Assembly: GCA_000004985.1 (NCBI GenBank)
Contig: GG738845.1
Reading direction: 5' to 3' (one strand)
DNA: 64,000 nucleotides
Source of the DNA: Naegleria gruberi
Taxonomy: Eukaryota
Shown here: piece after piece, positions 22,152 to 56,626 of the stretch
Layout of the letters: the number at the start of each line of letters is the position of its first letter
How positions within the stretch are numbered: the stretch's first letter is position 1
Made by a program: the position numbers and the translations under genes
The notes under the pieces: generated by a model
Databases searched by the model: none
What the model saw: the letters and a program-made list of their open reading frames with translations, nothing else
What the model was told of the DNA's origin: nothing

Positions 22152-22164
22152 TTGCGCGCCAAAA
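22152..22164. promoter_or_regulatory. E2F-like GC-core element TTGCGCGCCAAAA, 5-17 nt upstream of the GCP3 ATG
   Basis: It matches the E2F consensus TTTSGCGC(CAAA) and the DHFR-type site. It is one of six similar elements in the window. Confidence 0.45.
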
Positions 22165-22168
22165 AAAA

Positions 22169-25100
22169 ATGGCTTCCTCTTCTCAGCCAAGCATATTGTC
22201 ATTAGTAGAGAGGCTTTGTCGAAAACTTCTGTCCGGTCAGCAACAGTATAATTCTTATTCGGAAACACATGGTTGGTCATATAGTAAATTCTCAACTCAA
22301 ATTGTTGTTAACCAAGATAATTCCGATAGAGTTAGTGAAAAACTTGTAAAGAACACCAAAAGGACTTGTTTTTCTATCCTGATAGATAGGAATGAAAATG
22401 TAGGTTATATTGTTCTGTTAAAGGATTTATCATATTTAGTATATTCCCCCATTCGATTTTTCTGAATCATCAGATCAATTTCCATCTAAACTTTGTGAAT
22501 TGGATTATAGAATAGATACCCTGGTATGCACACTCAAATTGAGAGGTCAAGAGTCGACAGCCCAAAAAATTGAGCGTTTATTTCAATCCCTAAAACTATT
22601 GGATATGAAAATGAGCTCATTTCTTCTTCTTTTATTTAATGATTTAATTTCTCAAAACATTGACCAAAATTATGAGGAAAATAATTTAATTTTTGATATT
22701 TCATCCATTCAATCAGTTAGTGGAGAAAGTAAAAATTCAATGATATTGGAGGATTTGAATTTAAGTAGCCAATCTGATTTTTTCCCCAATGTACTTGATT
22801 GTGCCAGCAATACTCAATCTAATACTAGTTTATATTCAATGCAACCACTTTCAAAGATTGAAGGCTTCTTTGAAAATTTTGAATATTCTGACATATCAAG
22901 TCTAAAGAGACCACTAAGTGATTTTCAATCAGTTTTAAAATTGAAACCAGAAAAAAAGAAGCGATCTATCTATTTCACAGAACAAAGCAGTGACAAACTT
23001 TTTGAACACAAACATTATTTTGAGAGACTTTGTTTTGGATTGAATCCTCAACAAATACAAGAGTCTGATCTTGTAAATTTTGGCATATTAGCCCTACAAG
23101 GTATTTCATCGGATGTATTTATTTGGGATTCTGTAAAGTTTTGCTTTAAAATTCAACCAGTGAGGATAAAGACATTATCATTTCTAGGACTACGACAATC
23201 TTTGCAGGTAGTGGCCAACATGGGATCACTATTCAAACGTTTAGAAATAATAACAGAATATACTCAACTAGATTTAACCTATACTGGAAAATGCTTGCAG
23301 AGTTGTGGACAAGGTCTTTCTCATGTCATGAATTGGTACAAGTCATGTATACTAGATATTCCAAATATTCTAACTACTCTAGTCTCAGACTATTCAGGAT
23401 GTGATTGTAGAATTACAATTCTTAACTTGATACATCATATTACTCCTTTAAAGCAACGTTTAGAAGTGTTGTCTGAAATATTTGAATGTGACATACAAGA
23501 GAAAAATGCAAATGATGAATTCTCCATACTTCTTACTGATAATATACAGAGTAAGAATCTGTATATATCTAGTAGAGTTAAACAACTGCCCAAGGGAGCA
23601 AAGCTCATCAATTTAATGTATGAAAAAATTCAATCTATTGAAAATTCAAATAGGCCAGATTCTACGAATATTCTTCTTATATTACTCTACTATACTTTCC
23701 AGCCATACCTATATTGGATAAATAAGTGGATATTTTTTGGTGAGCTTGCTGATGATTTTAGTAGAGAGTTTTTTATTCAAAAGAATACCTCAAATCATTG
23801 TACTGAAATGTGGAATGCTCACATTGTGGATGCCCAACAAATACCTTCATGCATTTTAAAATGGGGAAATGACATATTTACTACTGGCAATACCGTAGGA
23901 ATAATCAAGTCTTGTAGACCAGATCACTACATTCTCAAAGATTTCATTTCCTCAACAATTAAATCTATCACAATTCTTTTCACTGAACAAGATTTGAAAA
24001 TTTATGAGCTTCAATGTGAAAAATTACAAAAATTACAACACAAAGACGCAACCTTAGAGATGAAAACCCAATTACAACAATTGGAAGTAAAAATTAGAGC
24101 TCAAGAGGAAAGACTGAAATTTGGTGAAGAATTATTGGATAGATTTCAAGAAGAGGAGAACAAATTACGAGATAAATTAAAGAAAGAGATCTTGGAAGAA
24201 TACAGAAAGAAAATGAATGTAGATATTTTTGAGGAGAGTCTGAACCTCAATAAGACACTGAATGAAATCACTCCCAAGCAACAGGATGAAGATTCTCTGA
24301 TGAGTGAAGCTCCTTCTCAATTGATTATTGAAGATTTAGACAAGCTGATTGATGATGAAGATGCAACCTTATTAATGAGAGTAGAATCTTTAAGTGTTTC
24401 CAACTTGTTGGAGAGTCAAAGGCCATTCATAGAGTTACCAATTGAGGTAGCAACTATGAGGAGTATTTTTTCAGTATTATTCCAGCAAAAACACATGATC
24501 GACAGCATTTTTGTGAAGATGTTATTTCACGACTATAGATTGAGCGAGTATTTTAGTATTATTAATAATTTTTTCCTTTTTCGAGCTGGTGACTTTCATG
24601 ATTGTTTTGTAAATATTTTGCATGAAGGCATGAAAAAGGGTATTCTGTATTCTGATATTTATATTGTAAATAGAGCTATGCAAGAGGCATTAAAGATTAC
24701 AGGCCATGCAGAGAGAGATGAAAGTATTGTATCCAAATTGAACTTCCGTATTGATGAATCTAAGGTTATTAATTTTTTAGATTACAACTCTGTTACAAGT
24801 CTCGATCATTTGTTATTACATTATGACATTGAGTTTCCTGTCTCGTTAATATTAACACCAATCATGATGGGAAAATATGCATCAATTCATGCACTCTTAC
24901 TTAAAATCAAACGGATCGATTGCTCACTGTTGGATATTTGGACTATTTTCAAGGTAAAGACTAGAATAACCAATCAAAGACTAAAGTATCTCCAACTATT
25001 TAGACAAGAGATTCAGCATTTTATAACGGTATTCAAAACGTTCATCTTTGTAGAGGTTATTGAATCATCCTTTTCTGATTTTGTTAAAGAATTACTTCAC

Positions 25101-25433
25101 CAAAAAGATAAGGATTTGAATATGGAAAGATTGTTATCAATTCATCAAAAGTTTGTTGATTCATTAATCAAACAGTGTCTACTCTCTACATCAGCTAAAC
25201 CTATTATGGATATTATTTTGAAAATGTTTGGATTAATTTTAAAGTTCAAAATTCAAATTGAAAATGTGGACATAACAGATTTGCCAGATACCCATTATGC
25301 AATAATTACACAAACTAGAAAAGAATTTATAGATTGTGCCCTATTTTTGGATTCATTAATGGACAGAGTAGCTCTGCAATCAACAACATCCAAGTTTGGA
25401 AAATTCAGAATGAATTATAAATTTACATACTAA
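22169..25433 (+). CDS. TUBGCP3: Gamma-tubulin complex component (GCP3/Spc98-like). Two exons, approx 22169..22399 and 22440..25433.
   Basis: The N-terminus MASSSQPSILSLVERLCRKLLSG matches human GCP3 [22 protein letters not shown]. Later GRIP-type motifs are present (LLILLYYTFQPYLYWINKWIFFGELADDF; LFRAGDFHDCF). ORFs 22136..22465 (frame 2) and 22500..25433 (frame 0) must be joined. A 40-nt GTAGGT...ATTTAG intron is the best solution. The alternative is a GTAAAG donor at 22346, or a real frameshift. Confidence 0.65.
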
Positions 25434-56200: not shown

Positions 56201-56595
56201 AATTGCAATGATATTCTTCCTATTAATACTCAAGCTGGTAATGGTATGGTCAGAGCGAGAAATGAGAGCTTCAAACTCTAATGATGGATATTTGTAGCAA
56301 TTTACTACATTATCCTTTGAACCTACAAATAAATGACATCCATCCAAAGAAAACACTGCACAAGTTGGCTCTTTTTGTTTTGTTTTCACTACTCTTTGAT
56401 CTGCTATTTTATCATCCTTGAGTGATAGCACCATCAATTGGTTATCAGTATCGGTAGTAACGATTGACCTATTCATATGAATAAACTTCTATTATTTGAA
56501 AGTACATACTCTTCAGTTGGGTGATGAACCAACCAGCAACACAAAGAAGATTTAGATTTTCCTCCATTGTTTATCAGTATGGATTGTGAAGCCAT
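53294..56595 (-). CDS. WDHD1: Ctf4 / AND-1 / WDHD1 replisome protein (WD40 plus SepB domain). Two exons: 56510..56595 and 53294..56468.
   Basis: The N-terminal WD repeats align with human WDHD1 (EPTCAVFSLDGCHLFVGSKDNVVNCYKYP...IAIGSMSEKLSVQIIDV). The SepB domain matches (NLVIVYQQGTCLFLD...LPCSELAWIGFGTGTKDLLYVFDSTQILYLMN matches EQLFIVYHRGTGFDGD...LTRKSYLAWIGFSAEGTPCYVDSEGIVRMLN). Exon 1 (MASQSILINNGGKSKSSLCCWLVHHPTE) is joined by a 41-nt GTATGT...AATAG intron in phase 2. Confidence 0.8.
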
Positions 56596-56614
56596 TTTTT
56601 TTGAATTATTTTTT

Positions 56615-56626
56615 AAAATTGGCGGG
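56615..56626. promoter_or_regulatory. E2F-like element (minus-strand reading CCCGCCAATTTT), 20-31 nt upstream of the Ctf4 ATG
   Basis: The plus strand reads aaaattggcggg. Its reverse complement is the TTTCCCGCCAA-type core seen at 44307. Confidence 0.4.

Follow-up and report, generated by a model that had tools for sequence, protein, structure and literature searches.

Candidate E2F-type sites in the short proximal promoters of Naegleria gruberi

Which factor reads the short GC-core words that recur immediately before start codons in a genome so rich in A and T? The question is raised by a 64-kb stretch of the Naegleria gruberi genome (contig GG738845.1; the whole stretch of 64,000 nt is hereafter called the window), measured as 33.4% GC and 66.6% AT, in line with the approximately 67% AT given by an initial annotation made from the sequence alone. 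Long open reading frames (ORFs) are broken by few short introns; ATG-to-stop ORFs make up 88.1% of the window, and the remaining 7,647 nt (11.9%) are just 29% GC. The GC-core sequences very probably represent genuine regulatory switches, of a type that is well known, and the probability that they are binding sites for the N. gruberi E2F family, located in proximal promoters, can be put at roughly 0.7. E2F/DP sites are an expected and known kind of element; E2F, DP and RB were already known in Naegleria, and it is the sites that are newly described there. Literature searches retrieved no description of E2F sites, or of any promoter motif, in Naegleria, and the field would gain its first concrete promoter element. 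If canonical sites are under selection in a heterolobosean, this would favour an ancient origin of the factor, of its DNA code and of its target logic.

Eight strings had been quoted in the initial annotation, six as clear copies of the element and two as weaker ones. All are present in the window. The positions 22152, 35726, 38451, 52381 and 48345 are exact, and the string at 56615 is the reverse complement, as stated; two positions have to be shifted by one nucleotide, from 44307 to 44308 and from 42139 to 42138. The candidate sites, with the gap between core and start codon, are the following.

22152..22164, plus strand: candidate E2F-type site TTGCGCGCCAAAA, core CGCGCC 8 nt before the ATG (22169) of a gamma-tubulin complex gene
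35726..35740, no strand assigned: candidate E2F-type site TTTTTGGCGCCAATT, palindromic core TTGGCGCCAA, 76 nt before the ATG (35654, minus strand) of a sirtuin-like gene
38451..38460, no strand assigned: candidate E2F-type palindrome TTGGCGCCAA, 30 nt before the DRC2 ATG (38489)
44308..44322, plus strand: candidate E2F-type site TTTTCCCGCCAATTT, which includes TTTTCCCGCC, 35 nt before the CDC16/APC6 ATG (44353)
52381..52398, no strand assigned: candidate E2F-type site AAATTTGGCGCCAAATTT, a perfect 18-bp palindrome, 58 nt before the Borealin ATG (52451)
56615..56626, minus strand: candidate E2F-type site CCCGCCAATTTT, 25 nt before the true Ctf4 ATG (56595), which opens a short exon 1
48345..48352, plus strand: weaker candidate ATCGCGCC, core CGCGCC lacking the T and A flanks, 55 nt before the INTS3 ATG (48408)
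18218..18225, plus strand: extra canonical candidate TTTCCCGC, absent from the original list, core 4 nt before the start codon (ATG 18215, minus strand) of a gene for a coiled-coil protein of 341 aa

The palindromic nature of the 52381 copy, already recognized, is confirmed. The sites share a CGC-containing 6-bp core (GGCGCC, CGCGCC or CCCGCC), flanked by T-rich sequence on the 5' side and A-rich sequence on the 3' side. Oriented by gene, six of the seven read SSCGCC followed by AA, and the GCGCCAAA half mostly faces the gene.

Copy numbers were compared with dinucleotide-preserving shuffles of the window. SSCGCCAA has 9 matches at 6 loci against 0.50 expected, TTTSSCGC 6 matches at 5 loci against 1.17, and TTGGCGCCAA is found 3 times against 0.00; the three occurrences of GGCGCC in 64 kb all lie within TTGGCGCCAA. 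The 6-bp core SSCGCS occurs at seven loci, namely the six clear copies plus the INTS3 one, and all seven fall in the non-coding 11.9% (binomial p=3.5e-7). In a blind k-mer scan, the words most enriched in non-coding DNA are runs of A or T, with one exception, GGCGCCAA, the sole GC-containing 8-mer of that group. By contrast with the seven genes preceded by the core, SSCGCS was not found upstream of the other ~24 genes of the window, among which those for IRE1, myosin I, Beclin, GNT-I, fumarase, NUBPL, RPC34, kinases and a RING-BRCT protein.

The notion that the copies are GC-rich words arisen by chance, or what is left of a dispersed repeat or of the end of a transposon, draws on the shortness of the motifs, and on scores of a weight matrix, discussed below, which can be matched in mononucleotide shuffles. 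Exact words, however, far exceed their numbers in dinucleotide-preserving shuffles, and all copies are non-coding. Chance origin is excluded by the shuffles and by the coding/non-coding split, as the initial annotation had anticipated in calling the copies unlikely by chance. That annotation had also named a dispersed repeat as an outcome which would speak against its proposal. When the seven sites are aligned with 40-nt flanks, information content is at background outside ~10-12 nt; hence they do not stem from a dispersed repeat, and a repeat search within each region yielded nothing relevant. Since the sites are moreover conserved across genera at orthologous promoters, the whole explanation is left with a minimal probability.

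The strongest evidence comes from cross-species footprinting, in which loci of three targets, Ctf4, Borealin and DRC2, were fetched from other heteroloboseans. The strict SSCGCS core is present in 8 of 11 orthologous 110-nt promoters (binomial p=4.9e-15), the background being 9 strict cores in the 114 kb of fetched loci outside these promoters, or 7.9e-5 per nt. Two further promoters, both from N. fowleri, carry relaxed ACCGCC variants. DNA around the conserved cores is otherwise unalignable between orthologous promoters. All five fetched Ctf4 loci feature one or two CCGCC/CGCGCC sites, the N. fowleri form being the relaxed ACCGCC; two of the loci, L004 and L005, represent the same N. fowleri promoter, so that the five correspond to four species. 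All orthologous Ctf4 sites are within ~70 nt of the exon-1 ATG. The sequences found are listed by promoter.

Ctf4 promoter, N. lovaniensis: ACCGCCAAAA and CCCGCCATTC
Ctf4 promoter, N. fowleri: ACCGCCAAAA and ACCGCCATTTC
Ctf4 promoter, metagenomic relative L006: TTCCCGCCA and TTTTCCCGCC
Ctf4 promoter, Willaertia: TTTTTCCCGCC and CCGCGCCAAG
Borealin promoter, locus L002: TTGGCGCCAAAA
Borealin promoter, N. lovaniensis: TTTCCCGCGC
Borealin promoter, N. fowleri: TTTTTACCGCC
DRC2 promoter, N. gruberi: TTGGCGCCAAG
DRC2 promoter, N. lovaniensis: TTTGGCGCCAAAAAAA
DRC2 promoter, N. fowleri: TTGCGCGCCAAAAAA
DRC2 promoter, Willaertia: TTGGCGCCAAA
DRC2 promoter, locus L012: TTTTGGCGCCAAAA

In the MAFFT alignment of DRC2 promoters, TTGGCGCCAA or TTGCGCGCCAA is the sole conserved block, besides the A-run preceding the ATG. 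The 38451 palindrome is also 116 nt before the ATG of a divergent TPR gene (38336, minus strand). The upstream neighbour of DRC2 varies, being this minus-strand TPR gene in N. gruberi, a plus-strand gene for an 857-aa protein in N. lovaniensis and CAND1 in Willaertia, and the site thus travels with DRC2. A scan of JGI metagenomes for GCP relatives, aimed at a similar footprint of the GCP promoter, found nothing.

Between orthologous sites, substitutions exchange G and C at either of the two S positions and leave CGC untouched (GGCGCC, CGCGCC, CCCGCC). Such a pattern fits the degeneracy of the E2F consensus exactly, unlike what would be predicted for a strict palindrome reader. The same comparison bears on the proposal that the element is a composite of an E2F site and a CCAAT box recognized by NF-Y, epitomized by the string GCGCCAAT. 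CCAAT does follow the core in three of the six N. gruberi copies (35726, 44308 and 56615). The remaining three carry CCAAA or CCAAG, however, and none of the orthologous sites has CCAAT, which is replaced by CCAAAA, CCAAG, CCATTC, CCAC, CCTC, CCTT or GCGCTCC. The composite module suggested by the initial annotation is rejected on account of this lack of conservation and retains a very low probability; CCAA rather belongs to the A-rich E2F flank GCGCCAAA.

Location raises a further possibility. The sites lie very near start codons, as close as 8 nt at the GCP gene, and the 52381 palindrome overlaps the INTS3 stop codon; the element might therefore act at the RNA level, as a hairpin in a 5' or 3' untranslated region, or as a signal of the core promoter or initiator type. 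With minimum free energies between -0.4 and -3.1 kcal/mol, the RNA structures predicted for the sites are negligible, and the hairpin is rejected. Non-palindromic copies are unable to self-pair, the distance from the ATG is variable (8 to 76 nt), and most genes of the window do without the element. A role of this kind is accordingly very unlikely. The claim that the copies lie 5-90 nt upstream of a start codon holds, provided that the short first exons of the GCP, sirtuin-like and Ctf4 genes, which are hidden in a simple list of ORFs, are taken into account.

As an independent scan, a weight matrix trained solely on sites from species other than N. gruberi was run over the N. gruberi window. 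The GCP promoter site is the top-ranked match, and the GCP, DRC2, Borealin, sirtuin-like and APC6 sites are all within the top six; three of these five genes gave no sites to the training set. The significance of the sites comes from exact words, location and conservation.

The factors are at hand. E2F and DP genes, a search for which had been advised along with the E2F assignment, exist in N. gruberi: Medina et al. 2016 (PMC4862756) provide the sequences of NgruE2F, NgruDP, NgruDEL and NgruRB in supplementary FASTA files. NgruE2F aligns with human E2F4 of the E2F4-DP2-DNA structure 1CF7 with E=7e-25, and a 24-residue stretch containing the recognition helix is identical. The NgruDP sequence includes RRRVYDALNVLMA. 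As the DNA-contact helices (RRXYD) of both E2F and DP are conserved, the DNA specificity of the N. gruberi proteins should be conserved too. NgruDEL is an E2F7/8-like protein with two DNA-binding domains. The C-terminus of NgruE2F, ESGEGVSDLFL, appears similar to the motif by which animal E2Fs bind pocket proteins.

Sites recognized by E2F/DP in animals and plants include TTTSSCGC, the DHFR-type overlapping TTTCGCGCCAAA, the E2F1 sequence TTTGGCGCCAAA obtained by high-throughput systematic evolution of ligands by exponential enrichment (HT-SELEX) and the Arabidopsis TTTCCCGCC (consensus as in PMC3734150). The HT-SELEX consensus of E2F1 is ATTGGCGCCAAA or TTTGGCGCCAAA (PMC5449588), and the full 12-mer TTTGGCGCCAAA is contained in AAATTTGGCGCCAAATTT at 52381. 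The assignment of the element to the E2F type is upheld by this identity, the TTTSSCGC match, confinement to proximal promoters, orthologous conservation and the factor genes. Naegleria and animal/plant sites have in common the core, the flanks, the occurrence of both palindromic and single-orientation forms, and closeness to the gene start. Likewise, genes of replication and mitosis are among the candidate targets in Naegleria (Ctf4/WDHD1, Borealin, APC6, the gamma-tubulin complex subunit), and genes for E2F, DP, DEL and RB are all present in N. gruberi, the recognition helix of its E2F being identical. Unlike their animal and plant counterparts, Naegleria promoters are far shorter, with sites 8-76 nt from the ATG; moreover, the stop codon of a preceding gene lies within one of the sites or overlaps it, and one conserved target is axonemal.

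Another parallel is offered by Cryptosporidium parvum, in which E2F-like TGGCGCCA, [C/G]GCGC[G/C] and GGCGGG words are over-represented upstream of genes (PMC3734150). This too is a protist with an AT-rich compact genome and E2F/DP genes, in which the same palindromic GC core emerged from sequence statistics upstream of many genes, beyond those of the cell cycle (PMC3734150). The Cryptosporidium study was genome-wide and made use of expression clusters, whereas the present work combines one window with cross-species footprinting. Cryptosporidium lacks RB (PMC3734150), which Naegleria has.

How might the sites work? The binder would likely be an E2F-DP heterodimer, possibly also the two-domain DEL/E2F7-8 protein, acting at sites placed in the very short proximal promoters of a compact genome. 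If animals and plants are taken as a guide, the sites would place transcription under the E2F/RB switch: E2F bound to the pocket protein, or DEL, would repress the genes, and their activation would fall to free E2F-DP. Genes for replication and mitosis (Ctf4, Borealin, APC6, the gamma-tubulin complex subunit), plus the flagellar DRC2, would in this way be coupled to proliferation. Sequence match, promoter-only location, orthologous conservation and factors with a conserved DNA-reading helix are matters of observation. Occupancy of the sites, whether regulation is positive or negative, and when it takes place are inferred. Interphase Naegleria amoebae lack microtubules, and kinetochore and mitotic tubulin genes are reported to undergo transcriptional induction at mitosis (bioRxiv 10.64898/2026.08.18.745565). 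Mitotic induction on a microtubule-free interphase background makes a transcriptional switch for Borealin, APC6, Ctf4 and the gamma-tubulin complex subunit plausible. A series of RNA-seq data covering mitotic synchrony and amoeba-to-flagellate differentiation in N. gruberi, with 15 time points, has been produced by Kennard et al. 2025, as reported in bioRxiv 10.64898/2026.08.18.745565.

The genes downstream of the clear copies are the following.

22169..25433, plus strand: gamma-tubulin complex component gene; exon 1 with ATG at 22169, a short intron, main ORF from 22605
32928..35654, minus strand: gene for an ~870-aa protein with a split, divergent Sir2-like domain; start ATG at 35654
38489..40183, plus strand: dynein regulatory complex subunit 2 (DRC2) gene; NYD-SP28 domains (Pfam)
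44353..46313, plus strand: gene for the subunit CDC16/APC6 of the anaphase-promoting complex/cyclosome (APC/C); three exons, ANAPC3 domain and TPR repeats (Pfam)
52451..53275, plus strand: Borealin gene; Nbl1_Borealin_N domain (Pfam), KEN at residue 115
53294..56595, minus strand: Ctf4/WDHD1 (AND-1) gene; short first exon, Mcl1_mid and WDHD1 WD40 domain (Pfam)

Most of the identities proposed earlier stand, namely CDC16/APC6, Borealin with its KEN box, Ctf4/AND-1 and DRC2. CDC16/APC6 is the best match of the APC subunit among solved structures, and the INTS3 gene (ATG 48408) encodes an Ints3_N domain (Pfam). The label GCP3 has to be revised. Pfam identifies GCP N- and C-terminal domains in the product of 22169..25433, which is thus a gamma-tubulin complex protein; it matches GCP6 at 4.7e-42 and GCP3 at 2.5e-14, and GCP5 is also a much better match than GCP3. 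With ~1,000 aa, the protein is far shorter than animal GCP6. The sirtuin-like assignment holds by remote homology only. The protein has no direct Pfam or PDB match; an exhaustive HMMER search retrieved many proteins of 300-450 aa which are related to its first 160 residues and carry Pfam SIR2. According to pairwise alignment, the Sir2-like domain is split into residues ~10-160 and 716-793 by an insertion of ~550 residues, and its catalytic HG motif is replaced by RG. The start of Ctf4 is set at ATG 56595 (minus strand) because the exon-1 peptide is conserved in relatives; protein identity is 56% with N. lovaniensis and 40% with Willaertia magna. The Ctf4 ORF was matched in an ENA metagenome assembly only, and in none of the NCBI proteins. 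The DRC2 ORF (38489-40183) is 100% identical to NAEGRDRAFT_1424 of N. gruberi; the public DRC2 model is partial, with 435 aa against the 564 of the ORF. The DRC2 and Ctf4 comparisons thus identify the window as nuclear DNA of N. gruberi.

Enrichment of the downstream genes in cell-cycle and replication functions, proposed at the outset, is borne out in part: Ctf4, Borealin, CDC16/APC6 and GCP belong to the cell cycle, replication or mitosis, while DRC2, the sirtuin-like gene and INTS3 have no obvious fit. Several considerations weigh against E2F as the reader. Three of the seven or eight targets, the latter genes, are not classic E2F targets. The case is built throughout on sequence and comparison, over ~64 kb of N. 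gruberi DNA and ~120 kb from relatives. Absolute matrix scores of single sites do not exceed the best scores in mononucleotide shuffles, and are thus not significant by this measure, for which reason ranks alone were used. The site was not found in the DRC2 promoters of the more distant Acrasis kona and of locus L013. Finally, another factor with similar GC-core specificity would fit the sequence too.

The last point deserves attention, since the elements could be real and conserved, and yet be read by a factor other than E2F/DP, be it a winged-helix or zinc-finger protein, or an NFI-like reader of TTGGC/GCCAA half-sites. The three exact TTGGCGCCAA palindromes can be viewed as abutting TTGGC/GCCAA half-sites, and the genes unrelated to the cell cycle in the target set accord with such a factor. 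Non-palindromic TTTCCCGCC, TTGCGCGCC and TTTCCCGCGC are found at orthologous positions, however; they fit the TTTSSCGC degeneracy and not a TTGGC half-site reader. Together with the conserved DNA-contact helices of N. gruberi E2F and DP, they make a different reader improbable, though less so than the explanations dismissed above, and E2F-type proteins are preferred.

DRC2 merits separate consideration. Its product belongs to the axoneme, and flagella are missing from Naegleria in the amoeba stage. Even so, each of the five Naegleria-Willaertia clade species examined has retained the DRC2 site, which hints that an E2F-family factor may control a flagellar gene. According to a 2025 review, Naegleria lacks RFX, FoxJ1 and XAP5, and the regulators of its cilia genes are not known (PMC12183034). 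In vertebrate multiciliated cells, E2F4/5-DP1-Multicilin drives centriole and cilia genes (PMC12183034, PMC4083089). Stentor induces E2F while it regenerates its ciliated oral apparatus, a process for which E2F is required (PMC9371601). The conserved Naegleria DRC2 site parallels this ciliary or basal-body use of E2F outside the cell cycle. Unlike the vertebrate E2F4/5-Multicilin case, the Naegleria lead consists of one axonemal gene, and a Multicilin-like cofactor is not known. Conservation in five species, the lack of RFX, FoxJ1 and XAP5, and the Multicilin and Stentor precedents make an E2F input to the Naegleria flagellar programme a reasonable hypothesis, resting on a single gene. The stronger proposal, that E2F/DP or DEL directly controls flagellar genes such as DRC2 in the amoeba-to-flagellate transition of Naegleria and Willaertia, as part of a “microtubules on demand” programme, is tentative and on balance doubtful. 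If true, the E2F family would be more than a G1/S switch in Naegleria and Willaertia, and an ancient or convergent counterpart of E2F4/5-Multicilin in animals and of E2F in Stentor regeneration would be at hand. In either case, the DRC2 site represents a testable lead on the question, posed by the 2025 review, of which transcription factors serve cilia genes where RFX and FoxJ1 are missing. A gene with a XAP5 domain (PF04921) resides directly downstream of Willaertia magna DRC2 (locus L010, 7578-8552, minus strand). It stands beside the statement of the same review that Naegleria is devoid of XAP5, a regulator of cilia genes in Chlamydomonas (PMC12183034).

Other motifs occur in the vicinity of the sites. 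A hexamer (TTTGAA or TTCAAA) similar to the cell cycle genes homology region (CHR) is found within 80 nt of the core in seven of the nine promoters of Ctf4 and Borealin, where ~0.23 would be expected per promoter. The arrangement recalls the pair formed by the cell cycle-dependent element (CDE) and the CHR in G2/M genes, which DREAM/MuvB binds, in that a CHR-like hexamer accompanies an E2F-like core in these Ctf4 and Borealin promoters. The CDE/CHR spacing is fixed at 4 nt, in contrast to the variable one observed here; the hexamer is found in one of four DRC2 promoters, and in neither the GCP nor the APC6 promoter. It shows no overall enrichment in non-coding DNA and, being common in AT-rich sequences, is only suggestive of a CDE/CHR-like pair. 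The hexamers are located at 56600-56605 in the window, and in the promoters of loci L003, L004, L007 and L002; in N. lovaniensis and N. fowleri they form the palindrome TTCAAATTTTGAA.

The weak copy at 42138, TTTTACGCCATTT, which had been assigned to the divergent promoter of the BRCA1-like (RING-BRCT) and fumarase genes, is rejected as an E2F site. It has no SSCGCS core, the true ATG of the BRCA1-like gene is ~300 nt away, and the promoter of the N. lovaniensis orthologue has TTGGCCAAAA and no E2F core. The 42138 copy shares TTTACGCCAT with non-coding DNA at 13915, and looks like another motif. The window has two occurrences of TTTACGCCAT, neither of them in coding sequence: one at 13915-13928, between the Beclin and NIF-phosphatase genes, and one at 42138-42150, with the fumarase ATG 19 nt further on. 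E2F-like sites are followed by CCGCCATT(T)C in the Ctf4 promoters of N. lovaniensis (L003, ~9961-9972) and N. fowleri (L004, upstream of 9820). As CGCCAT resembles the YY1/YY2 core, TTTACGCCAT and CCGCCATT may represent a separate motif.

Gene order is partly shared among N. gruberi, N. lovaniensis and N. fowleri, in which Borealin and Ctf4 are arranged tail-to-tail, and DRC2 is followed by the RING-BRCT gene. The conserved order spans 52451-56595 and 38489-41674 in the window (loci L003, L004/L005, L008 and L009 in the relatives), and more distant genes differ. The fumarase encoded at 42157-43899 (plus strand) is of class I, the iron-sulfur type (Fumerase/Fumerase_C). An identical copy of the fumarase stretch and the neighbouring RING-BRCT gene is found on a 4.7-kb environmental metagenome contig (ERZ929261). 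A tRNA-Lys(UUU) gene lies at 18289-18361 (minus strand), between the genes for IRE1 and the 341-aa coiled-coil protein, ~65 nt from the TTTCCCGC site. The word AAAAAATG is strongly tied to gene starts, as 20 of its 27 occurrences straddle boundaries between non-coding DNA and an ATG, and the A-run immediately preceding the start codon is kept in the promoters of relatives as well.

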